Shown here: in pieces, positions 5,441 to 58,335 of the stretch
Layout of the letters: every line of letters starts with the position of its first letter
How positions within the stretch are numbered: position 1 is the first letter of the stretch
NCBI GenBank assembly: GCA_964403285.1
Contig: CAYOFG010000005.1
Coordinates: forward strand, 9,995 to 73,994
DNA: 64,000 nucleotides
Source: an uncultured Clostridia bacterium
GTDB lineage: Bacteria > UBA6262 > WVXT01
Direction: 5' to 3'
Translations under genes and position numbers: made by a program
Notes under the pieces: model-generated
Seen by the model: the letters and a program-made list of their open reading frames with translations, nothing else
What the model was told of the DNA's origin: nothing
Databases searched by the model: none

Positions 5441-7987
5441 TTGGAAAGAACATCTCAACCAGATGTCTTCTTGGTTAATATTGTATATAAATATACAGGA
5501 CTTCTCGCTGGCATGGTGTGGCCATTAATACTAATTTTGAGAGAAATTCCACTTAGTAAATTCCCGCAAACATTTTCAGTTATCTTTTTAATAGTTGTTT
5601 TTAATATTGCCAGTAGCAAAATGATGCTCAAAGGTAAGTTTCTAAAATTGAATAAGCTACTCATGGGACTACTGAATATTCTTTTCGTGACCCTTCTGGT
5701 CTACTACTCAGGCGGTTACAAGTCGAACCTCTGGGTGATGTTTTTATTGCCCCTGATAATAGTTTCCTTGTTGTATTCGCTAAAGGAGGTGATTGTCGCT
5801 GCATCTTTTGTAACGATAATTTGTAGCCTCTTCTACTTTCTCCAGACCGAGAAAATTCAATTTGAGGGTGTTGCCTGGCTATTGTTGAAGAGTAGCATAT
5901 TTTTTGTTGTAAGTCTAATCTTCAAAAAGATTGTAGAGTTAGAGACAAAACATAGGGAGGCTTTTCAGGAGAAGAGCCGCGAGCTAATTAAAACTCGGGA
6001 TTATACGGACAACATTGTTAGGAATATGTTAGATTCTCTAATTGTAATTAGCCCTGATGCTAAGATAGAAAGGATAAATAAGGCAGCACTTGATATTTTG
6101 AATTATAACGAAAGGGAACTGATAAAAAAGCCAGTTACCAAAATTTTTTCTCAGAAAGACGGAGAACTCTTACAGGGTCGCCAATGGGGGGAGTTGCTAA
6201 ACAAAGGTTTCGTCAGGGATTTCGAGTTGACTTATGTAACTAAAAGAGGAGACAGAATTCCCGTAAGTCTTAGTGGCTCGGTAATGAGGGATGGTGAGGG
6301 GAAGACCGAGGCTGTTGTGGCAGTAGTTAGAGATATGCGGGCTCTGAAGACTCTAATTGCAGGTTTAGAGAAAGCAGGAAGAGAGATTAGAGAGTATAGC
6401 CAGAGTCTGGAAAGGAAGGTTGATGAGAGAACCAAAGAGATAAAAAAGCATGCTCATGAGTTTTCTATCATTTATGAAATAAACAAAGGTATCAGCTACA
6501 CCCTTGATATCCGCCAAATTTTAGAAACGATAATGGGTTCACTCCATAGACTGATAGACTACGATGTTTTCGCATCATTATTGATAGAAGGAGGGAAAGG
6601 AGAATTAATCATAGAATCCTGCCATTCACTAGATGAGAGGTTTCTTCAGGCGGTCAAGTTGAATCTGGCAGGTGTAGCGAATTCTCTTCTCGGCCGGGAT
6701 GTAAAAGTTGAAGATTTAAGAGTTACTTTGAGAAAGGAGAAAAGTTTCAGGCTTCGGCAACAAGTTGAAGGAGAATTGGAATCTTTCCTTAACGTACCTT
6801 TGGTTATTGAAAATCTTCCCCTGGGGATTCTGCACATAAGCAGTTTTAGAAAGAATGCATTTTCTGAAGATGACATCAGAATACTTCACACCATTGCCGA
6901 CCAGGTGGCTTCTGCACATAAGAAACTGAAGGAGTTAATCTCCAAAGAGAAGAGAAAAATTGAATCGATGGTGGAGAGTATGGGTGAAGGGGTAATAATG
7001 ACTGATGAGAGTGACAATCCGCTGGTGTTGAATCCTGCAGCAAAGGGGATGCTGGGAATCTCTTCCATAGATAGTATGAGCGATGAGGAAATGTGGAATT
7101 ATTTTGGAAAGCTTAAACTGGGCAGATTGTATCAAAAACTTTCCCAACAGGCAGGTGACGGGGTGGTTACTGAGGATGTGGATTTAGACGAACCTAAGCC
7201 AATTACTTTAAAAGTCACCTCTTCCCTGGTAAGGAATCACCTGGGCGAGAGACTGGGAGTGGTGACTGTATTGCGAGATGTTACTAAAGAGAAAGAGCTT
7301 GACCGCATGAAATCCGACTTCATTTCCTTCGTCTCTCACGAGTTACGTACTCCCCTTACAATTGTAAAGGGGTTTGCGACCATTATGTTGGACGATGCAT
7401 CGGACAGGCTTACCAGAGAGCAAAAGGAACAGTTATCCTATATCAATGAGAGTATCGACCACCTTTCCCGTATAATTTCCAATCTCCTGGACATTTCCAA
7501 AATAGAAGCGGGAAAGTTGCGGCTGGAAAAGAAGAGCGTAGATATTGTCTCCTTAATTAAAAAGGTGTTACGTTCATTCAGGCTATATGCCAAAAGTAAA
7601 GAGATTAAATTGGAGACTTCTTTTGCTACAAAATTGTCCCTTGTTTCGGCTGACCCCGACCGCCTGACACAAGTACTTACGAATCTTATTGACAATGCCA
7701 TTAAATTCTCTCACAAGAATGGAGAAGTTTTTATCAAAGCAAAAGAGGAGAAAGATGTTATTGAAGTCAGTGTCGCCGATTCGGGAATAGGTATCTCTCC
7801 AGAAAATTTCAATAGAATCTTCAATAAATTCCAGAGAGTAGAGAAGGGAATTAGTTCCAAGTTGAGAGGGACAGGACTGGGACTGCCCATTTCCCGGGAG
7901 ATTATTCAACTTCACGGCGGTAAAATCTGGGTAGAAAGCGAAGAAGGAAGAGGCAGTAAGTTCATTTTTACCCTTCCCCAACAATGA
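5441..7987 (+). CDS. multi-sensor membrane histidine kinase (5-6 TM, PAS, GAF, PAS, HisKA, HATPase)
   Basis: Hydrophobic N-terminal third, PAS/GAF regions, H-box FVSHELRTPLT, HATPase motifs (DNAIKFS, DSGIGIS, GTGLGL). Confidence 0.85.
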   Translation: MERTSQPDVFLVNIVYKYTGLLAGMVWPLILILREIPLSKFPQTFSVIFLIVVFNIASSKMMLKGKFLKLNKLLMGLLNILFVTLLVYYSGGYKSNLWVMFLLPLIIVSLLYSLKEVIVAASFVTIICSLFYFLQTEKIQFEGVAWLLLKSSIFFVVSLIFKKIVELETKHREAFQEKSRELIKTRDYTDNIVRNMLDSLIVISPDAKIERINKAALDILNYNERELIKKPVTKIFSQKDGELLQGRQWGELLNKGFVRDFELTYVTKRGDRIPVSLSGSVMRDGEGKTEAVVAVVRDMRALKTLIAGLEKAGREIREYSQSLERKVDERTKEIKKHAHEFSIIYEINKGISYTLDIRQILETIMGSLHRLIDYDVFASLLIEGGKGELIIESCHSLDERFLQAVKLNLAGVANSLLGRDVKVEDLRVTLRKEKSFRLRQQVEGELESFLNVPLVIENLPLGILHISSFRKNAFSEDDIRILHTIADQVASAHKKLKELISKEKRKIESMVESMGEGVIMTDESDNPLVLNPAAKGMLGISSIDSMSDEEMWNYFGKLKLGRLYQKLSQQAGDGVVTEDVDLDEPKPITLKVTSSLVRNHLGERLGVVTVLRDVTKEKELDRMKSDFISFVSHELRTPLTIVKGFATIMLDDASDRLTREQKEQLSYINESIDHLSRIISNLLDISKIEAGKLRLEKKSVDIVSLIKKVLRSFRLYAKSKEIKLETSFATKLSLVSADPDRLTQVLTNLIDNAIKFSHKNGEVFIKAKEEKDVIEVSVADSGIGISPENFNRIFNKFQRVEKGISSKLRGTGLGLPISREIIQLHGGKIWVESEEGRGSKFIFTLPQQ

Positions 7988-9313: not shown

Positions 9314-10243
9314 ATGAAGAGCAGAATACTGGTTGTTGATGATGAGTTGAGCATTGTCGATTTCCTTGGTGGACAACTGGCAAACAGAGGATATGATGTC
9401 CTAAAAGCTTTCGATGGAGAGGAGGGCATTGATTTAGCCAAGAAAGAATTGCCGGACCTTGTGCTTCTGGACGTGCGTATGCCCAAAATGGATGGATTTG
9501 AAATCTGCCGAAAACTGAGAGAAGACCGTATGACTTATCTTATTCCCGTGATAATGATCACGGGGAAAAGGGAACAGGAAGATAAGATTACAGGGATTAA
9601 GTCTGGGGCTGACGATTATGTCACTAAACCCTTTGACCTACCGGAATTATTAGCCAGAATAGAAGGAGTTCTCTGGCGGACAAAGGTAGGAAAGGGAAGT
9701 AACCCCTTAACGGGCTTACCAGGGGCTCCGTCAATTGAGTATGAAATAAGCAAAAGGATAAACAATAGGAGTAAATATGCGGTTTGCTATCTCGATTTAG
9801 ATAATTTTAAAGCATACAATGACAAATATGGATATGACCAGGGAGATAAAGTTATTGTCTTTACAGCTAAGGTTTTAATTCAGGCAATAACTAAGGAAGG
9901 AAATGCAGATGACTTTCTTGGCCACATTGGCGGTGATGATTTTATTATAGTGACCACTCCCGAGAGAGTGGAAAGTATATGTAGAGTGGTCATTGATAAT
10001 TTTGACCTCAATATTCCCGTATTCTATGCTGAAGAAGATATAAAGAAAGGTTACATTGAGACGATTGACCGTAGAGGTAATCTCCATAGGTTCCCCTTTA
10101 TGACCCTTTCTATAGGGGTGTCCACCAATGAGAGGCGAACTTTTAATAGTCCCCTGGAGGTATCAGCCATAGCCACTGAAATGAAACAATATGCCAAGAC
10201 CTTTACGGGCAGTAACTATAAAGAAGATAGAAGAACTGGTTAA
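9314..10243 (+). CDS. response regulator with GGDEF (diguanylate cyclase-type) output; GGDDF variant
   Basis: Receiver (ILVVDDE...LLDVRMPKMDG...VTKPF) followed by NPLTGLPG...LDLDNFKAYND...HIGGDDF. The signature reads GGDDF instead of GGDEF, and no RxxD I-site is visible upstream of the motif. Confidence 0.8.
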   Translation: MKSRILVVDDELSIVDFLGGQLANRGYDVLKAFDGEEGIDLAKKELPDLVLLDVRMPKMDGFEICRKLREDRMTYLIPVIMITGKREQEDKITGIKSGADDYVTKPFDLPELLARIEGVLWRTKVGKGSNPLTGLPGAPSIEYEISKRINNRSKYAVCYLDLDNFKAYNDKYGYDQGDKVIVFTAKVLIQAITKEGNADDFLGHIGGDDFIIVTTPERVESICRVVIDNFDLNIPVFYAEEDIKKGYIETIDRRGNLHRFPFMTLSIGVSTNERRTFNSPLEVSAIATEMKQYAKTFTGSNYKEDRRTG

Positions 10244-10268
10244 TAAAAAGTGACAGGTAGTTTTTTTT

Positions 10269-10465
10269 GGTCTCTGAAAAAGTCCTCCTCGATGTCTTTG
10301 CGAGGAGCAAAGCGGTTGCGAGGCGAAGCCGAAGCAAACTCGTGCGGAATTACGAGATTGCTTCACTTCGTTCGCAATGACACTTTGTGTCAGATTGCCA
10401 CGCCCTTCGGGCTCGTCCCGACTTTCAATCGGGAACAGACCAAAGTCAATACTTTTTCAGAGACC
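10269..10465 (+). repeat. 197-bp MITE-like element with 14-bp terminal inverted repeats (GGTCTCTGAAAAAG)
   Basis: An almost identical copy in inverse orientation lies at 18835-19027. The interior is built from CATTGCGAG / GCAATCTC palindromic sub-units. This copy sits between the two arms (10250-10260 and 10494-10505) of a GTGACAGGTA/GTACCTGTCAC palindrome. Confidence 0.8.
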
Positions 10466-10517
10466 TTTTTTTAAGCGATATCAAGAGAAAAAAGTACCTG
10501 TCACCTTTTTTTAGAAA

Positions 10518-10546
10518 TTGACAGGCAAATATAATAAGTGTATAAT
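10518..10546 (+). promoter_or_regulatory. sigma-70-like promoter for otsA (TTGACA-17-TATAAT)
   Basis: Perfect -35 TTGACA (10518-10523), a 17-nt spacer, and perfect -10 TATAAT (10541-10546), about 60 nt upstream of the otsA ATG. Confidence 0.6.
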
Positions 10547-10605
10547 ACAAAAAAGATAGCCCCACCGTTTATCACGTTTATCAAAATAGTAGGAGAAAAA
10601 TATAA

Positions 10606-12069
10606 ATGTGGACGAAAGAAAACTTAGAGGATACAATTAAAAATAAATTTGGTGGTTATGATTTTATCGTTGTTTCCAACCGAGAGCCATACGTCCATGA
10701 ATATTCGGGCAAGAAAGTCAGATGCGTGAAGTCTATTGGAGGTCTCACTACTGCCATTGATCCAATAATGAAGGCTTGTAAGGGTGTTTGGGTTGCTTAT
10801 GGAAGTGGAGATGCTGACAAGGATGTTGTGGATAAAAGTAACAAAATTAAGGTTCCTCCTGAGGACCCGAAGTATAGTTTAAAGAGAATATGGATGACCA
10901 AGGAAGAGGAGAACGGTTTCTATTACGGCTATGCGAATCAAGTTCTTTGGCCATTATCTCACATCGCCTATCGCCAGCCAATTTTTGACGCCTCCCATTG
11001 GGAGTATTACCAGAAAGTCAACCAGAAGTTTGCCGAAGCTATTCTGGAAGAGAAAAGAGATAAGAAATTGTTCGTCTGGCTCCAGGATTACCATCTAAGT
11101 ATATGTGCGAAAATTATCAAGGAGAAAAATCCCGATGCAATTGTCTCTCTATTCTGGCATATTCCCTGGCCCAACCCGGAGGTATTCAGGATATGTCCCC
11201 AGAAAAAGGAACTCCTGGAAGGGCTTTTAGCCAACGACCTTCTGGGATTCCACCTTCGCTACCATTGCCTCAACTTTCTGGATACCGTAAGCCAGGAATT
11301 GGAAGCCAAAGTCAATCGTGAAGAGTCTTCTGTTACCTATAGGGACCATAAGACTTTAGTGAGACCGTTTCCCATCAGCGTCGATGCCGCGGGTATCTCA
11401 CAGATGGCTAATAGTAAAGAAGTTAAAGAAAAAATGAAAAGCCTTCCGGAAGAGATAGACCCACCTTATGAAATCCTCTGTCTGAGTATAGATAGGGTTG
11501 ATTATACTAAGGGAATTTTGGAAAAAATCAGAGGAGTGGATAGATTTTTAGAGAAGTATCCCGAATACCAGGGGCGGTTCGTGTTCGTTCAGCTGGGGGC
11601 ACTGAGTCGATTGCACATCAAGACTTACAAGCAATTAATAGATGATATCCAGTCCCTGGCTGAAGATGTGAATTGGAAATACCGTTCTGGCTACTGGTAT
11701 CCCATTGTCCTCATCAATCGCCGGCTCGATTATACAACGCACCTCGCCTACTATCGCGCTTGCGACCTGTTCCTGGTAGGTTCTCTCCATGACGGAATGA
11801 ACTTGGTTGCCAAAGAGTACAATATGGCTAACGTAGACCTTAATGGAATGCTCGTTTTGAGCCAGTTTACAGGCGCAGCGAGAGAATTAAAGGATGCTAT
11901 TTTGATAAATCCTTTTGACACTGAAGGATTTGCCGATGCGATTTACTCTGCAGTTACGATGCCAGAGGAGGAGAGAAAAAAACGGGTGAGAAATATGCGG
12001 AAGATCATCCTGGAAAATAACATTTATAAATGGGCAGGGAAATTCATCCTCCAGTTAAGCGAATTATAA
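10606..12069 (+). CDS. otsA: trehalose-6-phosphate synthase (GT20)
   Basis: 487 aa. Contains VVSNREPY, GGLTTAI, NQVLWPLSH and VWLQDYHL blocks typical of OtsA. Confidence 0.8.
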   Translation: MWTKENLEDTIKNKFGGYDFIVVSNREPYVHEYSGKKVRCVKSIGGLTTAIDPIMKACKGVWVAYGSGDADKDVVDKSNKIKVPPEDPKYSLKRIWMTKEEENGFYYGYANQVLWPLSHIAYRQPIFDASHWEYYQKVNQKFAEAILEEKRDKKLFVWLQDYHLSICAKIIKEKNPDAIVSLFWHIPWPNPEVFRICPQKKELLEGLLANDLLGFHLRYHCLNFLDTVSQELEAKVNREESSVTYRDHKTLVRPFPISVDAAGISQMANSKEVKEKMKSLPEEIDPPYEILCLSIDRVDYTKGILEKIRGVDRFLEKYPEYQGRFVFVQLGALSRLHIKTYKQLIDDIQSLAEDVNWKYRSGYWYPIVLINRRLDYTTHLAYYRACDLFLVGSLHDGMNLVAKEYNMANVDLNGMLVLSQFTGAARELKDAILINPFDTEGFADAIYSAVTMPEEERKKRVRNMRKIILENNIYKWAGKFILQLSEL

Positions 12070-12077
12070 AATAAGTC

Positions 12078-12923
12078 TTGAGCAGGATAAGTATCGTGAA
12101 ATATGTTTTCCATGTTTGGCAAAATATTGAAAGGAGATTGTTCTCAGCTAAGAGGATACTTCTTCTTTTGGACTTCGACGGCACACTGACTCCCATTGTC
12201 GATCGTCCTGGGAAGGCGGAACTCCCTTCAGAGATGGAAGGAATTCTGAAATTTCTTACAAGAAAGAGAAGATTCGAGGTTGCTATTATAAGCGGAAGGT
12301 CTCTTTATGACTTAAAACAAAAAATCAAGATAAGGAACATAATTTATGTGGGAAATCATGGATTGGAGATAGAAAGGAAGGGAAAAAAATTTATCTATCC
12401 CCAAGCCTCAAAATCAATCCCCACTATGAAGGAACTAAAGAAAATTCTAAAAGCAAGACTTGGTTCTATTAGAGGAACAATTATTGAAGATAAGAGAGTA
12501 GGCTTAGCTGTACATTATAGAGGGGTAAAGAATTCCGACGTGCCAGAATTAAAGAGGACCGTGAGAGAAGTTTTCAGTCCGTTTATGGAAAAGAGGAAGA
12601 TAAGAGTTGGCCATGGGAAAAAAATGGTTGAGGCAAAACCTCCTATTATGTGGGATAAGGGGAAAGCGGCTTCTCTGCTTATAAATTCTTTCAGGCAAGA
12701 GAAACCTCTTCCCATCTATTTAGGAGATGATAAGACAGACGAAGATGCTTTTTCCTCGCTGGATGGGAAAGGGATTACTGTTTTCGTGGGAAAACCCGGG
12801 AAATCAAAAGCGAATTTTTTTCTCAAGAATATTCGTGAAGTGGGGATTTTCCTGAAGAGGCTTTCTGCTTTGAAGGTAGGAGGTCATAAACCAAGTGCAC
12901 AAGAAAACGGGCCGCCTGGTTAA
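12078..12923 (+). CDS. otsB: trehalose-6-phosphate phosphatase (HAD family)
   Basis: LLLDFDGTLTPIV (HAD motif I), later YLGDDKTDEDAF (motif III). It lies immediately downstream of otsA. Confidence 0.75.
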   Translation: MSRISIVKYVFHVWQNIERRLFSAKRILLLLDFDGTLTPIVDRPGKAELPSEMEGILKFLTRKRRFEVAIISGRSLYDLKQKIKIRNIIYVGNHGLEIERKGKKFIYPQASKSIPTMKELKKILKARLGSIRGTIIEDKRVGLAVHYRGVKNSDVPELKRTVREVFSPFMEKRKIRVGHGKKMVEAKPPIMWDKGKAASLLINSFRQEKPLPIYLGDDKTDEDAFSSLDGKGITVFVGKPGKSKANFFLKNIREVGIFLKRLSALKVGGHKPSAQENGPPG

Positions 12924-13596
12924 GGCCAGAGAGCCATTCCATTTCTATACCAGGCTTAATTTAATTGAGTTTACGGGTAAGAAAGCCACCAATTTGCGCG
13001 AGCTGGTAGAGATAATGAAAGAAGTACCGGGTTCGGTTATCTACCACCATACGCACCATTATCTGCAACAGCACCTTTATCTCTCACCGGAACCTCCCAA
13101 CGACTTTGCCTACTGGGTTACCTATATTCTTCGCGAGGATGAATTGGGAGAAGAGATTGCCAGTATTGACCTCTGCAAATTTTCTACGATTCGCTCCCTG
13201 AGAGAAAAAATTATAGAGACCATTGAACAGCATCTTGCCCAAAACCCTGAACCGCTACGCACGGCACTCCCGGGAGGAGAATTCCATTTCCTTAAGACGA
13301 TTACCTTTATTCTGCCTACTCCTTATGTTGCGGGTGACCTATTAGAGTTTCTGGAATCTATCAAGAAAATTTCTATCCATTCAATCTACTTCCATATGTT
13401 TGAGGCGAAACTAAGGTTAGAAAAAGGAGAAAACGATTTTTCTCGCTGGATTGAAGATATGCTGGGAGAGAAGGAACTTGCCGAGGAGATTGCCCGACTC
13501 GACCCTTATACTTTTACTATGGAAGGTTTGCGGGGTGAACTCTCAAGACTAATTGCCAAGTATATTCCTGGAGAAATAATCGAATGTCAACAATAA
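12895..13596 (+). CDS. conserved hypothetical protein embedded in trehalose locus
   Basis: 233-aa ORF between otsB and the TreT-like gene, overlapping both ends. I recognise no family. Confidence 0.4.
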   Translation: MHKKTGRLVKAREPFHFYTRLNLIEFTGKKATNLRELVEIMKEVPGSVIYHHTHHYLQQHLYLSPEPPNDFAYWVTYILREDELGEEIASIDLCKFSTIRSLREKIIETIEQHLAQNPEPLRTALPGGEFHFLKTITFILPTPYVAGDLLEFLESIKKISIHSIYFHMFEAKLRLEKGENDFSRWIEDMLGEKELAEEIARLDPYTFTMEGLRGELSRLIAKYIPGEIIECQQ

Positions 13597-14804
13597 GTGA
13601 CTACGAATCAATTGTGGGAGCTGATGTAATCAACGAATTAAGAATGCTCGCCCGGAAACTGAAGAATAAAGTTATTCAGAATATCAACTCCACTTCAGTA
13701 GGTGGGGGAGTAGCTGAGATTCTCGGCCGCATGGTTCCCCTCCTGCAAGATTTGGGAGTAGATACCCGCTGGGATGTGGTGGAGGGAGGAGAAAAGTACT
13801 TTCAGGTAACCAAGAAGTTCCATAATGCTCTCCACGGCAGGAAAACGGAGATTACCAGTGATGACTATGAAATTTTTCTTGAAACTACAAAGACAAACAT
13901 TGAACAGATGGAATTTTATGGCGATATAATTTTCGTTCATGACCCTCAGCCGGTAGCTTTAGTGGAAAAGAAAAAATACTTGAAGAGCAGTTGGATCTGG
14001 AGGTGCCATATCGATTTCACCTATCCCGACCCCGAAGTGTGGAAGTTTCTTAAATCCTTTGTAGAGCAATACGACGCCTGTGTTTTTTCAGCGCCTTCTT
14101 TCTCTCGCCCGTTGCCCATTAGGCAGTTTTTGATTTCTCCTTCCATCGACCCCTTAAGCGTTAAGAATAGAGACTTGTCCGAGGAAGAAATTAATGATGT
14201 TCTTGAGAGACTAAAGATAAATAGGGATAAGCCAATAATTACTCAAATTTCTCGTTTCGATTATCTCAAGGATCCTTTTGGGGTAATCGAAGCCTTCCGG
14301 CAGGTTAAAAAGTATGTCGACTGCCGACTGGTTTTGGCTGGAGGAGGTGCAATTGATGACCCTGAGGGAGCAAAAGTCTTTCAGGAAGTAGTAGAGAAAG
14401 CAGGGAATGACCCGGATATCAACGTTTTGCTTCTCCCCCCGGCAAGCGACCTGGAAATAAATGCCTTACAAAGGGCATCTACAGTCATTCTCCAGAAGTC
14501 TCTCAGGGAAGGTTTTGGGCTTACAGTGGCTGAGGCTTTATGGAAGGCTAAGCCAGTGGTTGCTTCTGCAGTAGGTGGCATACCTTTACAGATTACCCAT
14601 AAGTATTCTGGACTACTTTCCCACACAGTTCAGGGAACTGCTTATTGGATCAGGCAGCTGCTCCATAGTCCCGGGTACGCGACAAAGTTGGGCGAAAATG
14701 GTAAAGCACACATTAAGCAAAATTTCCTCCTTACCAGACACTTGAGAGAGTACCTGCTCCTTTTTCTATCCTTAGAAGAAAAAGGGGACATAATCTACTT
14801 ATAA
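13584..14804 (+). CDS. treT: trehalose glycosyltransferring synthase-like GT4 (TreT-like)
   Basis: Blocks NINSTSVGGGVAEIL, RWDVVEGG..FQVTKKFHNALHG, FVHDPQPVALV, WIWRCHIDF, SPSIDPLSVKN, PIITQISRFDYLKDPFGVIEAF, LQKSLREGFGLTVAEALWKAKPVV and LLTRHLREYL. I recall these as matching archaeal/bacterial TreT closely; the match is from memory, not a search. Confidence 0.7.
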   Translation: MSTISDYESIVGADVINELRMLARKLKNKVIQNINSTSVGGGVAEILGRMVPLLQDLGVDTRWDVVEGGEKYFQVTKKFHNALHGRKTEITSDDYEIFLETTKTNIEQMEFYGDIIFVHDPQPVALVEKKKYLKSSWIWRCHIDFTYPDPEVWKFLKSFVEQYDACVFSAPSFSRPLPIRQFLISPSIDPLSVKNRDLSEEEINDVLERLKINRDKPIITQISRFDYLKDPFGVIEAFRQVKKYVDCRLVLAGGGAIDDPEGAKVFQEVVEKAGNDPDINVLLLPPASDLEINALQRASTVILQKSLREGFGLTVAEALWKAKPVVASAVGGIPLQITHKYSGLLSHTVQGTAYWIRQLLHSPGYATKLGENGKAHIKQNFLLTRHLREYLLLFLSLEEKGDIIYL

Positions 14805-14890
14805 AAAAGTGACAGGTACTTTTTTCTTTCCTTTTTCTGTCACACCCTTTTAGATGTTAACTTTCTGTTAAGTTTTTGTTAAAAATCTGG

Positions 14891-14922
14891 TTGACAAAAC
14901 CTGTTTTTTGTGGTAATATAAT
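14891..14922 (+). promoter_or_regulatory. putative promoter upstream of riboswitch 1
   Basis: TTGACA at 14891-14896, with TAATAT/TATAAT 17-20 nt downstream. Confidence 0.4.
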
Positions 14923-14979
14923 ATTGCCCTAAGGGAGCTTGATAAGAGTTGTTTTGACAACATAATAAGTGAGTTTGAA

Positions 14980-15058
14980 TTGTCCGATAAAGGCAAACCT
15001 CGAGAAATCGGGGGGCGCAAAACCTCGGATCTAAGGAGCCACCTCTATGATGGCCGGG
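14980..15058 (+). promoter_or_regulatory. c-di-GMP-I (GEMM)-like riboswitch, copy 1 (translational type)
   Basis: UCCGAUAAAGGCAAAC, then the hairpin CCUCGA-GAAA-UCGGGG (GNRA loop), then GGCGCAAAACC. A second stem CUCGG...CCGGG encloses the AAGGAG SD and the AUG at 15047. Confidence 0.45.
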
Positions 15059-16765
15059 TTGCCGAAGACAATAAACAATATATGGAGCCGAATAGGCAGG
15101 AAAACGTGCTTGTTCGGTTTTATATTTATATTAACTGTAGTTCCTTTAAGAATTATTGCATTTGCTGAGAGTACTGAACAGACTGTTTTAGGAAATCTCC
15201 AAGTTGTCAATAACACGCTGTTTGGAAAATTCAATTATGGCAATGAACGTGCGGAAGGATTTCTGGAAGCTAAAGAGTCTTTCCCAGGAGGGGTAAGCGG
15301 CTTTGTAATAGGGACAAACATTGGTCTGGGTTCTCTTGAGGAGAATTGCGGAAAAGGGAAAATAGACGTAAAAGTATGTTTTACTAATGATAATCCGGTA
15401 TGGGAGCGAAGCGCTCTTTATAAAGTAGGAGCCGCATGGCTTCCCCAGTTGAATCTTGGCTCTACTCACTTAAAAGCCAGGCTGGGCCTTAGAGGGGGTT
15501 ACCTTTCAGTAACGACCACTACCGAGCCGATAGACCCGCCATACCCCTCTCAATTCCTTTATGGAGGCGAGAGCGGACTATCCATTTCCCAGGAGTTCAA
15601 AGGGATAACTTTTGAGACCGGAGTTACCGGGTATATGACTTACAGTTTCTATAATCAGACTAATCAGGTTGATAATTCGGGAATTGAGTTACAGGCGGGT
15701 AGCAGAGTAGAGGTTCTTCCGGTTATATTAAGACTGGGATGGACGGGGACTTTAGTAAGCTATAATCAGGACAAATACTTTTTTCTGGATTCTATGAGAG
15801 AGGACAGTTACGAAGTTAGCATCGCCTATGCTGGAGAAAGGTTTGGTGTGGGACTATTCAATTCTCTGGAAATCAGAGAGGGAATAGAATTTGCAAGGAA
15901 GAGGGACCTGACAGGTATGGGAGTCCAGGTAGGCGGATGGTTAGCGAAGGGGATTTTCTCGCAGGACCTTCTGGTCGGGAAAGAGGCCTTCACAATTTCA
16001 CTGGGTAGAGATTTTTCTGATGCATATTTTGAAGCCTACTGGACAAAAGACCAGAATTATGTAGAGACAGGTAATGGTAACATTTTTGGAGTGAGTTTCA
16101 AGTGCGGGATTGGGCCTAAGCCATCTGATCTTGTGGAAATTGAGTCTTATAAGAGTTATGTTCGAGAAGGTGATAGTCCGTTCAACGCATTGCCCGATTT
16201 TCGCCTGCCATTTACTGAAAGCGTAGAAAGACTCGATACTATGAACAAGGTTATAAGGTACACCAGAAGTAACCTGGAATATATCCCACAGAATGGTTAT
16301 GACCGCGACCCCAAGGAAGTGTTCGAGTTGAGGGGAGGAGACTGTGATGAGCAAGTCTTCTTTCAGCTACATGCCCTGAAGTCCCATGGCTATGATGATT
16401 TATACGAACTGGCTTTCGTGTCTCCCAGAATGGCACACGCCTTCTCATACGGTAAAGATAACAGGACAGGAGAAGAATATATATGGGAGTATGGCAGGGT
16501 ATTCAGATTGGATTTTGACCCTGACTCAAGCCTCTCAGAAAAGGAGAAGATGGCAGCTATCCTTTCATCCAGGAGTTACACAGAGGACTGGGAGTATCTT
16601 TGGACTTTCAAACCCCCAAGTTCTGACTATAGGAAATACAATTACCAGGATATGGAATGCGTTTATGAAGCCTGGAGTGACGAGATAGATATTTCAGGAG
16701 ATACGGTACAAGTAATTCCTGAGTCGGGAATAAGATTATTTATCGGCACAGAATTTGAAGAATAA
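15047..16765 (+). CDS. secreted protein, paralogue A of tandem pair (function unknown; C-terminal GGDCDE-containing domain)
   Basis: 572 aa with an N-terminal signal/TM. More than 90% identical to 17145-18818 across most of its length. Confidence 0.75.
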   Translation: MMAGLPKTINNIWSRIGRKTCLFGFIFILTVVPLRIIAFAESTEQTVLGNLQVVNNTLFGKFNYGNERAEGFLEAKESFPGGVSGFVIGTNIGLGSLEENCGKGKIDVKVCFTNDNPVWERSALYKVGAAWLPQLNLGSTHLKARLGLRGGYLSVTTTTEPIDPPYPSQFLYGGESGLSISQEFKGITFETGVTGYMTYSFYNQTNQVDNSGIELQAGSRVEVLPVILRLGWTGTLVSYNQDKYFFLDSMREDSYEVSIAYAGERFGVGLFNSLEIREGIEFARKRDLTGMGVQVGGWLAKGIFSQDLLVGKEAFTISLGRDFSDAYFEAYWTKDQNYVETGNGNIFGVSFKCGIGPKPSDLVEIESYKSYVREGDSPFNALPDFRLPFTESVERLDTMNKVIRYTRSNLEYIPQNGYDRDPKEVFELRGGDCDEQVFFQLHALKSHGYDDLYELAFVSPRMAHAFSYGKDNRTGEEYIWEYGRVFRLDFDPDSSLSEKEKMAAILSSRSYTEDWEYLWTFKPPSSDYRKYNYQDMECVYEAWSDEIDISGDTVQVIPESGIRLFIGTEFEE

Positions 16766-16798
16766 AAACAAGGGCAACCAAAGAGGTGGTGCTCCCTT

Positions 16799-16835
16799 AC
16801 CGCCAGTACCAGGAAGGGTACTGGCGGTTTTTTTT
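16799..16835 (+). terminator. rho-independent terminator
   Basis: ACCGCCAGTACC-aggaagg-GTACTGGCGG followed by eight T residues, directly after the stop of paralogue A. Confidence 0.75.
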
Positions 16836-16931
16836 AAAAAAGGGGACAGGCTACTTTTTCAAAATTTTACGTATTTTTTACAATTTTTTTACACATCCGT
16901 GATATTAATAGTATAGACTGTATTTAAATAT

Positions 16932-17066
16932 TCCGAAAAGGCAAACTCCGAGCAATCGGAGGGCGCAAAGCCTTGGGGTTACATAGATATACAACATTGC
17001 AGTTGAACCAGCCGGGCTGCCGATAACGAGTAGGGGAACCCGTTAGGGGTAGCCCGGCTTTTTTTT
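16932..17066 (+). promoter_or_regulatory. c-di-GMP-I (GEMM)-like riboswitch, copy 2 (terminator type)
   Basis: UCCGAAAAGGCAAAC, then hairpin CUCCGA-GCAA-UCGGAG, then GGCGCAAAGCC. Further downstream, the stem GCCGGGCU...AGCCCGGC plus eight U residues forms an intrinsic terminator just before the RBS/ATG of paralogue B. Confidence 0.55.
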
Positions 17067-17144
17067 AATCTGCTAGCCCACAAACTCAGTATGGAAAATG
17101 CTGTCAAAAGGGATGAAAAACTTTGGGAAAGAAGTGGGGGAAGT

Positions 17145-18818
17145 ATGTTCAAGGCATGCTTGTTCGGTTTTATATTTGTCATATTGACTATAGTTTCTTT
17201 AGAGACTATTACATTTGCCGGCACTTCTGACGAGACCATTTTAGGAAATCTCCAAATTGTCAATAACACCCTGTTGGGAAAATTCAATTACGGCACTGGA
17301 CGCGTGGAAGGATTTCTGGAAGCCAAAGAGTCTTTCCCGGCAGGGGTAAACGGCTTTGTAATAGGGACAGACATTGGACTGGGTTCTCCTGAGGCGAATT
17401 GCGGAAAAGGGAAAATAGACGTAAAGGTATGTTTTACTAATGATAATCCGGTATGGGAGCGAAGCGCTCTTTATAAAGTAGGAGCCGCATGGCTTCCCCA
17501 GTTGAATCTTGGCTCTACTCACTTAAAAGCCAGGCTGGGCCTTAGAGGGGGTTACCTTTCAGTAACGACCACTACCGAGCCGATAGACCCGCCATACCCC
17601 TCTCAATTCCTTTATGGAGGCGAGAGCGGACTATCCATTTCCCAGGAGTTCAAAGGGATAACTTTTGAGACCGGAGTTACCGGGTATATGACTTACAGTT
17701 TCTATAATCAGACTAATCAGGTTGATAATTCGGGAATTGAGTTACAGGCGGGTAGCAGAGTAGAGGTTCTTCCGGTTATATTAAGACTGGGATGGACGGG
17801 GACTTTAGTAAGCTATAATCAGGACAAATACTTTTTTCTGGATTCTATGAGAGAGGACAGTTACGAAGTTAGCATCGCCTATGCTGGAGAAAGGTTTGGT
17901 GTGGGACTATTCAATTCTCTGGAAATCAGAGAGGGAATAGAATTTGCAAGGAAGAGGGACCTGACAGGTATGGGAGTCCAGGTAGGCGGATGGTTAGCGA
18001 AGGGGATTTTCTCGCAGGACCTTCTGGTCGGGAAAGAGGCCTTCACAATTTCACTGGGTAGAGATTTTTCTGATGCATATTTTGAAGCCTACTGGACAAA
18101 AGACCAGAATTATGTAGAGACAGGTAATGGTAACATTTTTGGAGTGAGTTTCAAGTGCGGGATTGGGCCTAAGCCATCTGATCTTGTGGAAATTGAGTCT
18201 TATAAGAGTTATGTTCGAGAAGGTGATAGTCCGTTCAACGCATTGCCCGATTTTCGCCTGCCATTTACTGAAAGCGTGGAAAGACTCGATACTATGAACA
18301 AGGTTATAAGGTATACCAGGAGTAACCTGGGATATATCCCACAGAATGGTTATGGTCGCAACCCCAAGGAAGTGTTCGAGTTAAGGGGAGGAGACTGTGA
18401 TGAGCAAGCTTTCTTTCAGCTACATGCTCTGAAGTCCCATGGTTATGACGATTTATACGAACTGACCTTCGTGTCTCCCAGAATGGCTCATGCCTTCTCA
18501 TATGGTAAAGATAACAGAACAGGAGAAGAATATATATGGGAATATGGCAGGGTATTCAGATTGGATTTTGACCCTGATGTAAACCTTTCAGAAAAGGAGA
18601 AGATGGCAGCTATCCTTTCATCCAGGCGATGCACAGAGGATTGGGAACGCTTCTGGGCCTTCAGACCTACAAGTTCCGACTATAGGGACTACAATTACCA
18701 GAATATGGAGTGGGTCTATCAAACCTGGAGTAACGAGATAGACATTTCAGAAGATACGGTACAAGTAATTCCCGAATCGGGAATAAGGCTATTTATTGGG
18801 ACTGAATTTGAAGAATAA
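17145..18818 (+). CDS. secreted protein, paralogue B of tandem pair
   Basis: The ORF is called from 17091. The ATG at 17145 (MFKACLFGF...) has the strong RBS GGGGGAAG and aligns with the start of the signal peptide. The body is near-identical to paralogue A. Confidence 0.75.
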   Translation: MFKACLFGFIFVILTIVSLETITFAGTSDETILGNLQIVNNTLLGKFNYGTGRVEGFLEAKESFPAGVNGFVIGTDIGLGSPEANCGKGKIDVKVCFTNDNPVWERSALYKVGAAWLPQLNLGSTHLKARLGLRGGYLSVTTTTEPIDPPYPSQFLYGGESGLSISQEFKGITFETGVTGYMTYSFYNQTNQVDNSGIELQAGSRVEVLPVILRLGWTGTLVSYNQDKYFFLDSMREDSYEVSIAYAGERFGVGLFNSLEIREGIEFARKRDLTGMGVQVGGWLAKGIFSQDLLVGKEAFTISLGRDFSDAYFEAYWTKDQNYVETGNGNIFGVSFKCGIGPKPSDLVEIESYKSYVREGDSPFNALPDFRLPFTESVERLDTMNKVIRYTRSNLGYIPQNGYGRNPKEVFELRGGDCDEQAFFQLHALKSHGYDDLYELTFVSPRMAHAFSYGKDNRTGEEYIWEYGRVFRLDFDPDVNLSEKEKMAAILSSRRCTEDWERFWAFRPTSSDYRDYNYQNMEWVYQTWSNEIDISEDTVQVIPESGIRLFIGTEFEE

Positions 18819-18834
18819 GGGCAGCCAAATAAGA

Positions 18835-19027
18835 GGTCTCTGAAAAAGTATTGACTTTGGTCTGTCATTGCGAGTCCCGATTGAAAATCGGGGCGTGGCA
18901 ATCTGACATAAAGTGTCATTGCGAACGAAGTGAAGCAATCTCGTAATTCCGCACGAGTTTGCTTCGGCTTCGCCTCGCAACCGCTTTGCTCCTCGCAAAG
19001 ACATCGATGGGGACTTTTTCAGAGACC
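18835..19027 (-). repeat. 197-bp MITE-like element, inverted copy
   Basis: Reverse complement of 10269-10465 with a few indels. It has the same terminal inverted repeats. Confidence 0.8.
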
Positions 19028-19272
19028 AAAATAAAAGACTTGACAAATTCGCATTTTTGTAGCATTATTTAAAGAGGGTAAATAGGGATATAAGTGTGTG
19101 CTGGGGTGAATTTTTTTTGTCTGCATTTTGAAGTGTTGATTTCAAAGTTACAGTATTACTAAAATTGACGAAGACGTATCGGAGGAAAAGAACCCAATCC
19201 TTAGCCATGCAGGAGATATCGACCCCAGGCCCAGAATACAGGAGATTCGAACCTAGGCTTTAGTCAAGAAAG

Positions 19273-20726: not shown

Positions 20727-20923
20727 TTGGGGTTAGTGAATTTTTATTTTCCTTGCTTTTTGCAAGAAGTGTAGATACAATATTTTCACAATTTCGCATG
20801 ATTCCAAAGGTACCGCATATAGTGCTACAATTTCAAATATTTCTTTTTGGGGCGGGAATAGCAGGTGAAATCCCTGTCCTAAACCTTCCAGAATATGGTC
20901 CATAAACCAGTAATTCCAATATT

Positions 20924-22743: not shown

Positions 22744-23134
22744 TATTCACCTCAAAAATAAAAAATCCAGCATTCCGCACTTGCAAAATACTGGACTTCG
22801 TTTCTCCTTCTCAAGCACGGAAAGCGCACCGATTTCTCAATGCACTCTATCGGCCATCAACCATATCTTTTGGACTTAGGCAAAGTGGCTCGGAGAATAT
22901 TTTTATAGCATAGTATAAAAATTATACTTTTTTGTCAAGTAAAAAAGAGATAGATGTTATCCAAAGGCTTTACCCACCCAGATTCTCGTTCTGGGAATCT
23001 TAACTTACCGGCAACCTCTGTTCGCTTCTGGTCATTTAGAAGTGAAAGCTTGACGAATTCTTATTTTCCTTGATTTTTATAGGAGGTTTAGATATAATAC
23101 TTTTGGTATTCTGGATAGTTCTAAGGTTGTGGAT

Positions 23135-23480
23135 GGCTCCTGTCGGCGGCGTACCACAATAGAACATACGCAACATACTTAACAACGATAATTTTCATTG
23201 TTCAAGCTAAAATTCCAAGGCTCAACAAGAATCCAAACGCATATTCAGGCATTACAAGACAGCCGGGCTATTGCTATAATATGCTTAAGAGAAGGAGGCA
23301 GTTACTAAAGAGAGGGTATAGATTTGACCGAAAAACGAGGGAGTGGGTAAAGAAATAACATAATAGCAGGTAATAGTAATAAGGATTCTTTGAAACTGCC
23401 TTACAGATTAGGGCGGTTTTTTATTGCCCTCTGTGGCAGATTTTGCTATAGTAGATCACACCGAAAGACAGGAAAGATTT
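23135..23480 (+). repeat. about 350-bp direct repeat, copy 1 (3' gene fragment plus terminator)
   Basis: Matches 27403-27748 at roughly 80% identity. It includes an in-frame remnant ...[30 protein letters not shown] corresponding to the C-terminus of ORF 27276-27626. No intact ORF lies upstream of the remnant. Confidence 0.7.
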
Positions 23481-26232: not shown

Positions 26233-26351
26233 AAATAGAGAATTTATTTCGCTTGATTTTTGCAAAAATTCAGAATATAATATATTCGTTACTGTAACGA
26301 AAAAGGGAAAATATGAGCTTGTTTTCGTTATGATAACTAAAAGGACAATAA

Positions 26352-27285: not shown

Positions 27286-27626
27286 TTAAATATTCTAAGA
27301 GGGTATTCTCTGGTAAGGACTTGCAAAAACTCAGCAAATATGATAAAAATAATCTGGAACTAGATATTCACATACCTGGGCAAAATGATTCCCATGGGTG
27401 TGCATGTTATCTGGCGGCGTACCACCATACAACATACACAAACCACATAGGAACAGTAATTTTCATTGTCCAGAGCATGATTTCAAGGCTAAATAAGAAT
27501 CCGAATGCGTGCTCAGGCCGTTCAAAACAGCCAGGCTATCGCTATGGGATGGTCAAAAGAAGAAGGCAGTTACTAAGGAAAGGTTATAGATTTGACCGAA
27601 AAACGAGGGAATGGGTAAAGAGATGA
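27276..27626 (+). CDS. hypothetical protein (its 3' end is duplicated at 23.1-23.35 kb)
   Basis: 116 aa with a basic C-terminus. Its start overlaps the stop of the upstream NTase gene. Confidence 0.4.
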   Translation: MEIIKYSKRVFSGKDLQKLSKYDKNNLELDIHIPGQNDSHGCACYLAAYHHTTYTNHIGTVIFIVQSMISRLNKNPNACSGRSKQPGYRYGMVKRRRQLLRKGYRFDRKTREWVKR

Positions 27627-27661
27627 TGTAATATCAGGTAATATTAATAAGGATTCTTTGA

Positions 27662-27691
27662 AACCGTCTTACCAAGGTGAGGCGGTTTTTT
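27662..27691 (+). terminator. rho-independent terminator
   Basis: AACCGTCTTACC-aa-GGTGAGGCGGTT (using G-U pairs) followed by TTTTTT. Confidence 0.6.
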
Positions 27692-27759
27692 ATTGCCTTT
27701 TCAAAATGTTTTTGCTATATTGACAGTAAGAAAAGGGACTGGAAAGGTTTATCGACCAT

Positions 27760-27832
27760 GGGGCAGTAGTTCGGTTGGGAGAACGCATCCCTCTCACGGA
27801 TGAGGTCAGTGGTTCGAATTCCCTCTGCTCCA
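27760..27832 (+). tRNA. tRNA-Glu (anticodon CUC)
   Basis: Acceptor stem GGGGCAG/CTGCTCC, D-stem GTTC/GAAC, anticodon stem CATCC/GGATG with loop CUCUCAC, T-loop TTCGAAT. There is one mismatch in the T-stem and no encoded CCA. Confidence 0.6.
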
Positions 27833-35533: not shown

Positions 35534-35726
35534 GTATGTGAGATTGATTTTGAAATCCCTTAATTTTTAAATTTGTTAATTTCCTTTGGTGCAAATTGAA
35601 ATTAAAAAAAGAGAAAGGAAGGTCTAACATCAGGATTCCTATTTTGCTTGATTTTTGCAAAAGCTTTAGATATAATAGATTTGGCATTCAGCATAAGGCA
35701 TAATAAGAAAATGCACGGCAGAATTT

Positions 35727-35818: not shown

Positions 35819-37255
35819 TTGTCCAAAGAGTCCGCAATGGCGGGCTATTTTTATCGAAAAATGGTCTTCCCCAAGGTAAAAAAAATAATAGAAAAATATA
35901 GTATGTTTTCTCCTGGAGATAAAATCCTGGTGGGAGTTTCCGGAGGACCGGATTCAGTTTGCCTGTTGCATATCCTGGATAGATTCCGAAAAGAGATGGC
36001 TTTATCCTTGCACATCGCACACATCAACCATGGAATAAGAAAGAGGGAATCTAAAAGAGAAGAAGAATTTGTGAGTCACCTGGCTGGTAGGATGGGTCTA
36101 CCAATTACGGTGAAATCAATAAATGTTCCCTCTTATGCTAGAAAGAAAAAGCTAACGGTTGAGGAAGCAGCAAGGGATATGCGTTACAGGGTTTTGGAGC
36201 GATTAGCCGGGAAACTGAATGCTAAAAAGATTGCTCTGGGACATACTGCTTCCGATCAGGTGGAGACAGTGCTAATGCACCTTTTGCGTGGCAGCGGTCC
36301 GCAAGGGTTATCTGGAATTCCTCCTTTGAGAAAATTGGGTAGAGCGGAAATCGTCCGTCCTCTAATAGAAATAAGTAGGGAAGAAATTTTGGGCTATTTA
36401 AAAGAGAATAATCTGAAATTCTGCCTGGATTCGTCAAACAGAAAAACCGAATATTTTCGTAACAAGATAAGGTTAAAGCTTCTGCCTCTTTTGCGAAAGA
36501 ACTATAATAGGAACATTGAGGGAGCGCTCCTCCGTTTGTCAGAAATTTTGAAAGAAGAGAATGCCTATTGGGAGAGAGTGGTGGAGAGAGTTTTGAACGA
36601 GGTAGTCTCCTGGAAATCAGGGAAAATTTTGATTGATTTCAGGAGGTTTTTAAGATATAATGTAGTTGTTCAGAGAAGAGTTTTATACAGGCTTTTTGCG
36701 GGAATTGTAAGTCTATACCAGATAGAAGCAATAAGAAATTTAGCAGGGAAGAGTTCTCAGGGGAAAAGGATTTATCTGGTTAACAGGTTAAGTGTCAGGA
36801 AAGAGGGCGATTTTCTCATATTCTCATCTTCTCCTGAGCGAAAGTTAAAAAAATTCAATTATCCCATCAGAGTTCCTGGCAAAAACGAGATTGACGGACT
36901 GAACTTAACACTCAATACCAGAATAGTAGATTTTCGTCCTGTTTCTGATGGAAGTGCCAATATAGTCTATTTTGATATTGATAAGATAAACTCCCGGAAG
37001 TTAATAATAAGGAATAGACGGGAGGGAGACAGGTTTAAGCCTTTTGGGTTGAGAGGTACAAAGAAGCTTAGTGACTTCTTTATTGATAGAAAAATCCCCA
37101 GACGTTTACGGGACAGGGTTCCTCTTCTGGTAGATGGAAACGATATTCTCTGGGTTGTGGGGATTCGCCGGGCCGATAAAGCAAGGATTACTGAAGATAC
37201 CAGAAAGATTTTGGAAGTTCAGGTTTTACGTGAGAAAGAGTCTTTCAGTGATTAA
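35819..37255 (+). CDS. tilS: tRNA(Ile)-lysidine synthetase
   Basis: PP-loop SGGPDS at residues 41-46 and a TilS-like C-terminal domain. The ORF begins at a TTG; alternative ATG starts lie 18 and 42 nt downstream. Confidence 0.85.
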   Translation: MSKESAMAGYFYRKMVFPKVKKIIEKYSMFSPGDKILVGVSGGPDSVCLLHILDRFRKEMALSLHIAHINHGIRKRESKREEEFVSHLAGRMGLPITVKSINVPSYARKKKLTVEEAARDMRYRVLERLAGKLNAKKIALGHTASDQVETVLMHLLRGSGPQGLSGIPPLRKLGRAEIVRPLIEISREEILGYLKENNLKFCLDSSNRKTEYFRNKIRLKLLPLLRKNYNRNIEGALLRLSEILKEENAYWERVVERVLNEVVSWKSGKILIDFRRFLRYNVVVQRRVLYRLFAGIVSLYQIEAIRNLAGKSSQGKRIYLVNRLSVRKEGDFLIFSSSPERKLKKFNYPIRVPGKNEIDGLNLTLNTRIVDFRPVSDGSANIVYFDIDKINSRKLIIRNRREGDRFKPFGLRGTKKLSDFFIDRKIPRRLRDRVPLLVDGNDILWVVGIRRADKARITEDTRKILEVQVLREKESFSD

Positions 37256-39677: not shown

Positions 39678-39769
39678 TATCGGGGTCGGGCACTCTTCAG
39701 AGTGCCGTTCTTCGTCACCCTTAAGGGTGACCGACCTATAACTACATTCCTCCCTTTCGGGAGGACTCC
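39678..39769 (-). repeat. compound palindromic repeat (REP-like), inverted copy of 62364-62507
   Basis: Hairpins GGGCACTCTTCAGAGTGCCC-like, GGTCACCCTTAAGGGTGACC and CCTCCCTTTCGGGAGG. The reverse complement recurs downstream of argS. Confidence 0.8.
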
Positions 39770-43364: not shown

Positions 43365-43413
43365 AAAAGGTGACAGGTACTTTTTTCTAAATATTGTACC
43401 TGTCACTTTTTTT
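43365..43413. terminator. palindromic hairpin AAAAAGGTGACAGGTAC-N15-GTACCTGTCAC-T7 (bidirectional terminator-like; REP family member)
   Basis: Perfect 11-bp inverted repeat flanked by an A-run and a T-run. The same arms recur at 10250/10494 and 14808. Confidence 0.6.
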
Positions 43414-50899: not shown

Positions 50900-51190
50900 A
50901 AGTTTAAAGTTAAAAGATAGTTCTTCGCTTGAGGAATATGCTCGGGATTTGGTTCGCTCGCTGACAATTTTTTGCTCTTCGAGCACCGCCAAAAATCTCT
51001 GTAGCTGCAGAGCGATAGCTCTGCGCAAATAATAAGCAAAGCTTGCGCTTTGCGGCTACAAATCTTCGATTTTTGGCTAAAAATTCCAAGAGCTCCTTAT
51101 AAATTGCACAAATTGAATTTGTGCCTACAATGAGATGAATTTGAAATTTTGTAGGCACGATTTCAAATCGTGCAAGGTTTTGAATAACGG
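50900..51190. repeat. mosaic of short palindromic repeat units (REP/BIME-like)
   Basis: Shares AAGTTAAAAGATAGTT, GCAGAGCGATAGCTCTGC, GCTTTGCGGCTACAAATCTTCGATTTTTGGCTAAAAATTCCAA with 58081-58335. It also holds a hairpin pair, TTGCACAAATTGAATTTGTGC and CACGATTTCAAATCGTG. Confidence 0.75.
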
Positions 51191-58080: not shown

Positions 58081-58335
58081 TTAAAGTTAAAAGATAGTTT
58101 ATTCCTCGCTGAGAGAAACGGGCTCAATAAATTGAGCCCCTACAAATCTTCGATTTTTGGCTAAAAATTCCAAAAGCTCTTCACAAACCATATTTTGAAT
58201 GTTGTAGCGGCAGAGCGATAGCTCTGCATTGTAATCGTGTCACTGCGAGCGACTGAAAGGAGCGTGGCAGTCTGGAGATTGCTTCGGTCGCCTGCTCCCT
58301 CGCAATGACAGCGCTTTGCGGCTACAGGATAGATA
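58081..58335. repeat. mosaic of REP-like units (same families as 1283-1390, 50900-51190, and the CATTGCGAG family)
   Basis: Contains GGGCTCAATAAATTGAGCCCCTACAA, CTACAAATCTTCGATTTTTGGCTAAAAATTCCAAAAGCTC, GCAGAGCGATAGCTCTGC, and GTCACTGCGAGCGA...CTCGCAATGACAGCGCTTTGCGGCTACAGG. Confidence 0.75.

Follow-up and report, generated by a model that had tools for sequence, protein, structure and literature searches.

Terminal inverted repeats (TIRs) combined with a target-site duplication (TSD) of fixed length are the signature of DDE-type transposition. Insertion sequences (ISs) of the IS200/IS605 type are without TIRs and without a TSD and integrate on the 3' side of a particular tetra- or pentanucleotide, and repetitive extragenic palindromic sequences (REPs) likewise have neither TIRs nor a TSD. 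REP elements, bacterial interspersed mosaic elements (BIMEs) and REPINs occur with RAYT transposases, and REPs tagged with GTAG or CGTC have been described inside palindromic shells (PMC3733652; PMC3116915). [quoted passage not shown] Here we analyse a pair of short inverted elements, copies A and B, that bracket trehalose and riboswitch-controlled genes in a 64,000-nucleotide stretch (the window) from an uncultured Clostridia bacterium (GCA_964403285.1, contig CAYOFG010000005.1, positions 9,995 to 73,994, forward strand). Loci retrieved for comparison are denoted by L and a number.

In our judgement the two copies are quite likely a non-autonomous TIR transposon, or MITE, that inserted independently at two intergenic sites. 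The element would represent a MITE family whose TIR a full-text literature search did not find.

Extent and similarity of the two copies

The inverted pair of roughly 200-nt elements that the initial annotation of this DNA had placed at 10269-10465 and 18835-19027 was borne out at those places. Its proposed 14-bp terminal repeat, GGTCTCTGAAAAAG, has exactly four occurrences in the window, which form two inverted pairs (10269/10452 and 18835/19014); in shuffled sequence 0.85 matches are met even when two mismatches are tolerated. The TIRs of both copies are perfect over 15-16 nt, with the sequence GGTCTCTGAAAAAGT(C). The limits of the 197-bp unit proposed earlier are right in placement and have to be moved outward, as the true ends lie 2 nt outside each terminal GG/CC; the resulting coordinates are given in Table 1. 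Copy A and the reverse complement of copy B are identical at 183 of 210 aligned columns and share a perfect tract of 98 nt (10289-10386), and the differences between them consist of two small indel modules.

The element carries no real open reading frame (ORF), only spurious short ones, and ranges in size from 184 to 225 nt across all the elements found. Folded as single-stranded DNA, copy A gave -66 kcal/mol (z = -9.2), and a run of seven T follows it on the + strand. Searches of Rfam with the element gave no match, either at the gathering threshold or at E values up to 10, and a full-text literature search with the TIR and core strings returned unrelated primers only. Logan short-read contigs end inside the element, as expected of a repeat.

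Target-site duplication and empty site

Every offset and length of a possible TSD was scored over nine independent insertions from several organisms. This gave a single clear signal, a 5-bp direct repeat that lies on both sides 2 nt outside the conserved GG/CC. In cis, the paired repeats agree at 42 of 45 positions; in a control that paired left and right flanks of different elements, the figure was about 14 of 45. A TSD of 8 or 9 bp was ruled out, since position-by-position scoring matches at the central five positions only. The two nucleotides between the TSD and the GG/CC are the element's own: two copies in a Candidatus Glassbacteria metagenome-assembled genome (MAG) lie in opposite orientations and agree, both having GA on the same end of the element and TA on the other. 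The same pair excludes the idea that the GA dinucleotide is target-derived or linked to the polarity of the TTGACA boxes described below, as it is borne by the element.

An empty site for copy A was found in related metagenome contigs, which were reached through OtsA homologues with 83-90% identity. At the junction in L027 between otsA and a gene for a response regulator with a GGDEF domain (RR-GGDEF), the palindrome GGTGACAGGTACC...GTACCTGTCACC that surrounds copy A in the window is present and the element is absent, so that copy A is an insertion. For copy B we found no clean empty site.

The description 'MITE-like' in the initial annotation is thus well founded, given the TIRs, the TSDs, the lack of an ORF, the multiple copies and the empty orthologous site of copy A in L027. 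Its analogy to IS200/IS605 or REP elements did not hold, because the element has TIRs and a 5-bp TSD and those have neither. TIRs together with a TSD of fixed length point to a DDE-type enzyme, and we conclude that the element is probably a TIR/TSD MITE of DDE type and not of the IS200/IS605 or REP type.

On this reading the outer shell, in which two variable terminal nucleotides precede the invariant 16-nt TIR GGTCTCTGAAAAAGTC, would be the part that a transposase recognises, and integration would duplicate 5 bp of the target, as in DDE-type cut-or-copy-and-paste transposition. The transposase would act in trans from outside the window, a step that we infer. The interior would not be derived from an IS, consisting as it does of nested REP-like palindromes, with the same core present in another TIR shell and alone. 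Copy A would have landed in the T-run within the loop of a REP/BIME-like palindrome, possibly a terminator, that was already in place, and copy B upstream of the next gene's -35 box, at a distance of 5 nt, the usual context for this MITE family. The pair would then be a passive inverted repeat, between which recombination may be possible and has left no sign so far.

Several points weigh against this interpretation. The outermost two nucleotides are not part of the inverted repeat and vary from copy to copy, an uncommon trait among DDE elements. The TSD of copy A lies within a homopolymeric T-run and is ambiguous on its own, and the sample comprises only nine to ten insertions. The repeats linked to Y1 'TIRYT' transposases mean that TIRs alone are no proof of a DDE enzyme (PMC3733652). 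Finally, an autonomous element with such TIRs is absent from the 376 kb of DNA searched (pairs up to 3.5 kb apart, with at most five mismatches).

Relatives of the element and search for a transposase

Two collections, one with a single genome per species and one of metagenomes, were scanned for the pattern TIR-N{150,180}-TIR only; the window's own genome was not among them. The first scan found only two elements, of 189 nt each, both in the Glassbacteria MAG, and the metagenome scan yielded four more loci. When matching in the retrieved DNA was relaxed, L007 proved to have a second copy and L008 a split one. Further copies were sought with the spurious ORFs translated from the element, which gave one more copy with a GGTCTCTG shell (L022) as well as several cores that sit in another shell. 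The 16-nt TIR is perfect on both window copies and on seven further elements, and it bounds otherwise unrelated elements of 184-225 nt in the Glassbacteria MAG and in four metagenome or ENA contigs. It is the sole part common to all of them, their interiors falling into three unrelated subfamilies. The host of the window is neither a cyanobacterium nor the Glassbacteria MAG with the same TIR. Cluster mates of the window's proteins (90% identity or more) bear only the labels 'bacterium', Elusimicrobiota or Candidatus Aerophobetes, and named homologues at greater distance come from Omnitrophota and Elusimicrobia. Viral contigs scanned with the 16-mer gave 11 matches, all by chance, four of them in one conserved giant-virus coding sequence. 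Beyond this locus, what matters is that unrelated organisms carry one invariant 16-nt TIR around interiors that are exchanged freely.

All ORFs of at least 150 amino acids in the window were scanned against Pfam, and those left unassigned also against NCBIfam. No transposase was found among them, in agreement with the initial annotation, nor any recombinase or Y1 (HUH) transposase. An ISL3-family transposase of 416 amino acids is encoded in L008 (5970-7321), 500 nt from a MITE copy; it was rejected as the parent, since its own inverted repeat, CTTTCCCATATTTTATGCAA, differs from the ends of the element. In the same locus two element ends (7679-7770 and 10455-10540) lie 2.86 kb apart around nifU, cysteine desulfurase and DsrE-like genes. 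Their TSDs are mismatched and a 36-nt direct repeat is present at the inner junctions, so that the split copy looks like a repeat-mediated rearrangement rather than a single insertion.

TTGACA boxes beside the insertions

At seven of the nine insertion sites a hexamer TTGAC(A/G) or TTGAAA starts 5-8 nt beyond the TSD and points away from the element. The count becomes eight of ten with the left end of the split L008 copy, which was read by eye. Such a placement is met at 1.8% of intergenic positions in the retrieved DNA, which gives a binomial P of about 2e-11, a value obtained post hoc and to be discounted accordingly. In an unbiased count of the flanks, TTGAC was the most shared outward 5-mer. 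A good -10 box lies 17 nt downstream of the hexamer at copy B in the window, at L005 and at the second element of L007 (L007b). Copy A departs from this pattern: its nearest hexamer with a fitting spacing is GTGACA in the palindrome arm, in the opposite orientation, and the relevance of this hexamer may or may not hold.

The same association can be read in another way, namely that the element is kept chiefly as a cis-element of the host (a terminator, an insulator or a regulator-binding site), with its 16-nt repeat and long hairpin preserved upstream of promoters by selection and not by continuing mobility. Its association with TTGACA boxes is strong and position-specific, its hairpin is very stable, the run of seven T after copy A gives it a terminator-like form on the + strand, and the TIR is invariant across distant organisms with an interior that is free to vary. 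We nevertheless think this unlikely. The TSDs and the empty site show arrival by insertion, and there is no Rfam family and no covariation evidence for the element. In addition, the hexamer adjacent to the elements in L004 and L007 is without a -10 box, the real promoter there being a second TTGACA about 27 nt further on, a pattern that, in a small sample, favours target choice over selection for promoter function. Domestication after insertion is compatible with the MITE explanation.

As a more speculative extension, it is possible, if doubtful, that elements with GGTCTCTGAAAAAGTC ends make up a MITE family spanning phyla that is targeted to promoters, about one helical turn upstream of a -35-like TTGACA, and whose interior acts as a landing pad for pan-bacterial, tiny palindromes of REP-like type, with a 27-nt unit that this MAG and Nostoc have in identical form. 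If the TTGACA rule held genome-wide it would represent a rare case of promoter-proximal target choice in bacteria, and a handle for finding the transposase.

The host palindrome and the question of hairpin targeting

Copy A has the arms GTGACAGGTA(G/C) on its two sides, at 10250-10260 and 10494-10504; this arm sequence has five matches in the window against 0.33 expected. The compact version that the initial annotation had located near 43365-43413 is indeed present, with its arms at 43370-43406 around a 15-nt loop. Copy A lies inside the palindrome, as had been proposed, but not exactly between its arms: it sits in the T-run at one side of a 27-nt loop, and 28 nt of loop are left on its other side. 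The arm unit is a 25-nt dispersed repeat, AAAAAGGTGACAGGTACTTTTTTCT, with a further copy at 14800-14827. As RNA the compact palindrome folds at -25.2 kcal/mol, with T-runs on both sides. Palindromes of the GTGACAGGTAC type have loops of 15-67 nt and are sited 3' of genes; a terminator scan made no call on them. The 25-nt unit is present in the window and its closest relatives only, is always 3' of genes, and occurs in clusters of two to four with variable spacers. Judged from sequence, it resembles BIME-like REP clusters or sequence-conserved terminators.

The loop of this palindrome is flipped between the window and L027. What reads AAGCGATATCAAGAG in the window (10261-10493) reads CTCCTTGATATCGCTT in L027 (9773-9838), where there are an additional 40 nt; this is a small-scale inversion between inverted repeats of 11-17 bp.

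The inserted element has a palindromic interior of its own. Its core consists of 120-150 nt of nested palindromes, including further small hairpins, and the partner repeat CTCGCAATGACA, kept in copy B and the relatives, is deleted in copy A. Between copy A and L021, where the TIR shell differs, the core is identical at 116 of 121 positions. The core in L020, L021, L023-26 and L039 is without GGTCTCTG ends and is bounded by GAGGCTGTGTC...GACACAGCCTC instead. This second shell (GAGGCTGTGTC), at 1640-1830 in L039 and 2950-3150 in L020, itself occupies the loop of a TGTAGC-headed GCAGAGC...GCTCTGC hairpin; in the window the same hairpin is unoccupied at 51007-51024 and 58210-58227.

Within the core, a 27-nt unit (10356-10382) matches with 100% identity an intergenic site of the Nostoc punctiforme plasmid pNPUN03 (L042, NC_010630.1, 71285-71311). 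There it forms half of an inverted doublet within TGTCATTGCGAG...TCGCAATGACA and an outer 8-nt inverted repeat, and similar 27-nt copies are found on plasmids of Fischerella, Brasilonema and Geminocystis. BLAST searches of plasmids and phages gave nothing but this 27-nt module, in cyanobacterial plasmids. The identity of the module in Nostoc means that such tiny palindromes are very widely shared.

These palindromes are the ground for a further alternative, that a REP/REPIN- or IS200/IS605-type element was moved as single-stranded DNA by a hairpin-seeking Y1 (HUH) transposase. In its favour, a palindrome loop surrounds copy A, REP-like hairpins make up the interior (some of them, in the L005 subfamily, GTAG-headed), palindromes nested in palindromes are seen repeatedly, and both REP dimers in palindromic shells and TIR repeats with 'TIRYT' genes have precedents (PMC3733652). 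Nine empty sites were reconstructed and judged by the presence of an inverted repeat of more than 7 nt across the insertion point. Only one of the nine is palindromic, that of copy A, so that insertion into a hairpin loop, as put forward in the initial annotation, is true of copy A and not of the family. The element also has a consistent 5-bp TSD and perfect TIRs, neither of which is found in IS200/IS605 elements or REPs, and the window holds no Y1 transposase. We consider it quite improbable that such an enzyme moved the element as a whole. A Y1 mechanism may well fit the inner modules, but not the outer shell; hairpin-associated insertion may well account for the former, with the outer shell acting as a conventional TIR/TSD element.

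The bracketed trehalose and riboswitch segment

Every gene between 5441 and 20391 lies on the + strand. An RR-GGDEF gene ends at 10243, the segment between the copies holds the trehalose and riboswitch-controlled genes (Table 1), and a kinase gene with PAS and HisKA_3 domains follows copy B. The relatives keep this order without the MITEs: L027 has the RR-GGDEF gene followed by otsA, and L029 and L030 have a 571-aa gene followed by the PAS kinase, in both cases in the orientation of the window.

The initial annotation had suggested that the pair could mediate inversion of the segment. This is mechanistically possible with a perfect inverted tract of 98 nt, and the TSDs in cis and the gene order of the relatives give no sign that it has occurred. 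An inversion would leave TTTTT/TTATT and AAAAA/AATAA, and what is observed is TTTTT/TTTTT and AATAA/AATAA. Only one orientation was seen in the window and its relatives, and no recombinase is present among the window ORFs scanned. Since the otsA promoter and the riboswitch leaders are inside the segment, a flip would not rewire expression. As for a composite transposon, the outer flanks, TTTTT and AATAA, do not match, and each copy has its own TSD.

That the pair is a genome-inversion switch, or the 8.8-kb unit a composite transposon with trehalose and riboswitch genes, is therefore very improbable: the 98-nt tract is long enough for RecA-type recombination, a small-scale flip between the palindrome arms distinguishes the window from L027, and inversion at Correia MITEs is reported in a review (PMC10969869), but the expected TSD exchange and the matching outer repeats of a composite insertion are not observed, L027 and L029/L030 share the window orientation without the MITEs, the promoters are within the segment and there is no recombinase gene nearby. 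The trehalose/riboswitch block consists of ordinary chromosomal DNA that has an old MITE insertion at either border; it is neither a mobile nor an invertible cassette, and the repeats accordingly need not be read as regulatory.

Within the block, the unit of riboswitch and 572/575-aa ORF occurs in tandem (15128-15427 and 17181-17480, 89% identity over 300 nt), and L027, L029 and L035 have a single such unit. Neither the 572-aa nor the 575-aa protein has a match in Pfam or NCBIfam.

Table 1. Positions of the MITE copies, their target sites and associated features in the window.
Feature	Position	Strand	Remarks
MITE copy A	10267..10467	+	201 nt including terminal dinucleotides TT/TT; TIRs 10269-10284 and 10450-10465
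MITE copy B	18833..19029	-	197 nt, inverted relative to A; dinucleotides GA/AA; TIRs 18835-18849 and 19012-19027
TSD of copy A, TTTTT	left 10262-10266, right 10468-10472	.	register taken from the other eight insertions
TSD of copy B, AATAA	left 18828-18832, right 19030-19034	.	direct repeat
Nested-palindrome core of copy A	10292..10410	+	starts TGTC(T/A)TTGCGAG; inverted doublet of the 27-nt hairpin unit
Stand-alone core-type palindrome (TGTCACTGCGAG...CTCGCAATGACA, same 12-nt inverted repeat)	58238..58310	.	no GGTCTCTG shell
Left arm unit of the REP/BIME-like palindrome hosting copy A (AAAAAGTGACAGGTAGTTTTTT)	10240..10266	+	includes the arm at 10250-10260
Right arm unit of the palindrome hosting copy A	10486..10513	-	includes the arm at 10494-10504
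Compact palindrome, 11-bp core stem with A/T extension, 15-nt loop	43364..43413	.	3' of ORF 43415-44140 (-)
Degenerate palindrome copy	14800..14846	+	3' of treT
Bracketed segment	10473..18827	+	otsA, otsB, DUF5752, treT, two units of c-di-GMP-I riboswitch and 572/575-aa ORF
otsA consensus promoter, TTGACA-17-TATAAT	10518..10546	+	45 nt beyond the copy A TSD, inside the segment
Promoter-like TTGACA-17-CATTAT	19040..19068	+	-35 box starts 5 nt past the right TSD of copy B

Other repeats in the window

The window contains several further repeat families. GTAG-headed, REP-like hairpins (TGTAGGGGCTCAAT..., TGTAGGCACGATTTCAAATCGTGC and others) form mosaic clusters at 1286-1311, 1339-1386, 51000-51175 and 58119-58144, and their sequence suggests that a RAYT-type system may be present somewhere in the genome. 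An inverted pair of 79-nt repeats with 91% identity, made up of three small GC-rich hairpins, lies at 39678-39756 and 62376-62454, 22.6 kb apart, and a local direct repeat of 27 nt (GGAGTCCTCCCGAAAGGGAGGA) at 62364-62390 and 62463-62489. A promoter-like repeat of 42 nt (TATTTTGCTTGATTTTTGCAAAAG...TAGATATAAT) is found five times upstream of different genes (20745-20786, 23062-23103, 26245-26286, 35640-35681 and 36625-36666). Finally, a direct repeat of about 300 nt (23145-23450 and 27413-27719, 80% identity, 4.27 kb apart) has one copy about 240 nt from a molybdenum cofactor (Moco) riboswitch (22788-22907), its second copy being placed immediately upstream of a tRNA (27760-27832).

Comparison with known systems

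The described MITEs Correia/CREE of Neisseria, RUP, MITEAba12 and Nezha (reviewed in PMC10969869) resemble the element in their size of about 100-400 bp, their TIRs and TSD and the lack of an ORF, as well as in their intergenic sites by promoters or gene ends, their strong tendency to form hairpins and the insertion of repeat into repeat. Correia elements duplicate TA, whereas the TSD here is 5 bp. The present family differs further from known bacterial MITEs in that no parent IS was found, in that the interior has been swapped wholesale between identical TIRs, and in that the promoter box is in the flank and not within the element.

Transposons of the Tn3 family have an inverted repeat of about 38 bp, which starts with GGGG and ends with TAAG, and an AT-rich TSD of 5 bp; their ends read GGGGTCTGA. 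The Tn3-derived TIMEs share the 5-bp, AT-rich TSD, and the GGGGTCTGA ends resemble GAGGTCTCTGA here, but the inverted repeat of our element is 16-18 nt long and is without the terminal GGGG or the inner TAAG of the consensus.

To IS200/IS605 elements the sole likeness is that one copy is within a hairpin. REP, BIME and REPIN elements come closer, sharing the hairpins of 25-30 nt arranged as inverted doublets and the layout of a REP dimer inside a longer palindrome, and the host palindrome GTGACAGGTAC forms BIME-like clusters at the 3' ends of genes. They differ in that the outer shell here has TSDs and is an inserted unit, as the empty site demonstrates, and in that a RAYT gene was not seen. 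For Nostoc punctiforme, Elhai et al. reportedly described in 2008 small dispersed repeats (SDRs) that are nested in MITEs. With that organism our element shares an identical 27-nt core unit, nested in a like manner, in a host that is here an uncultivated, non-cyanobacterial MAG.

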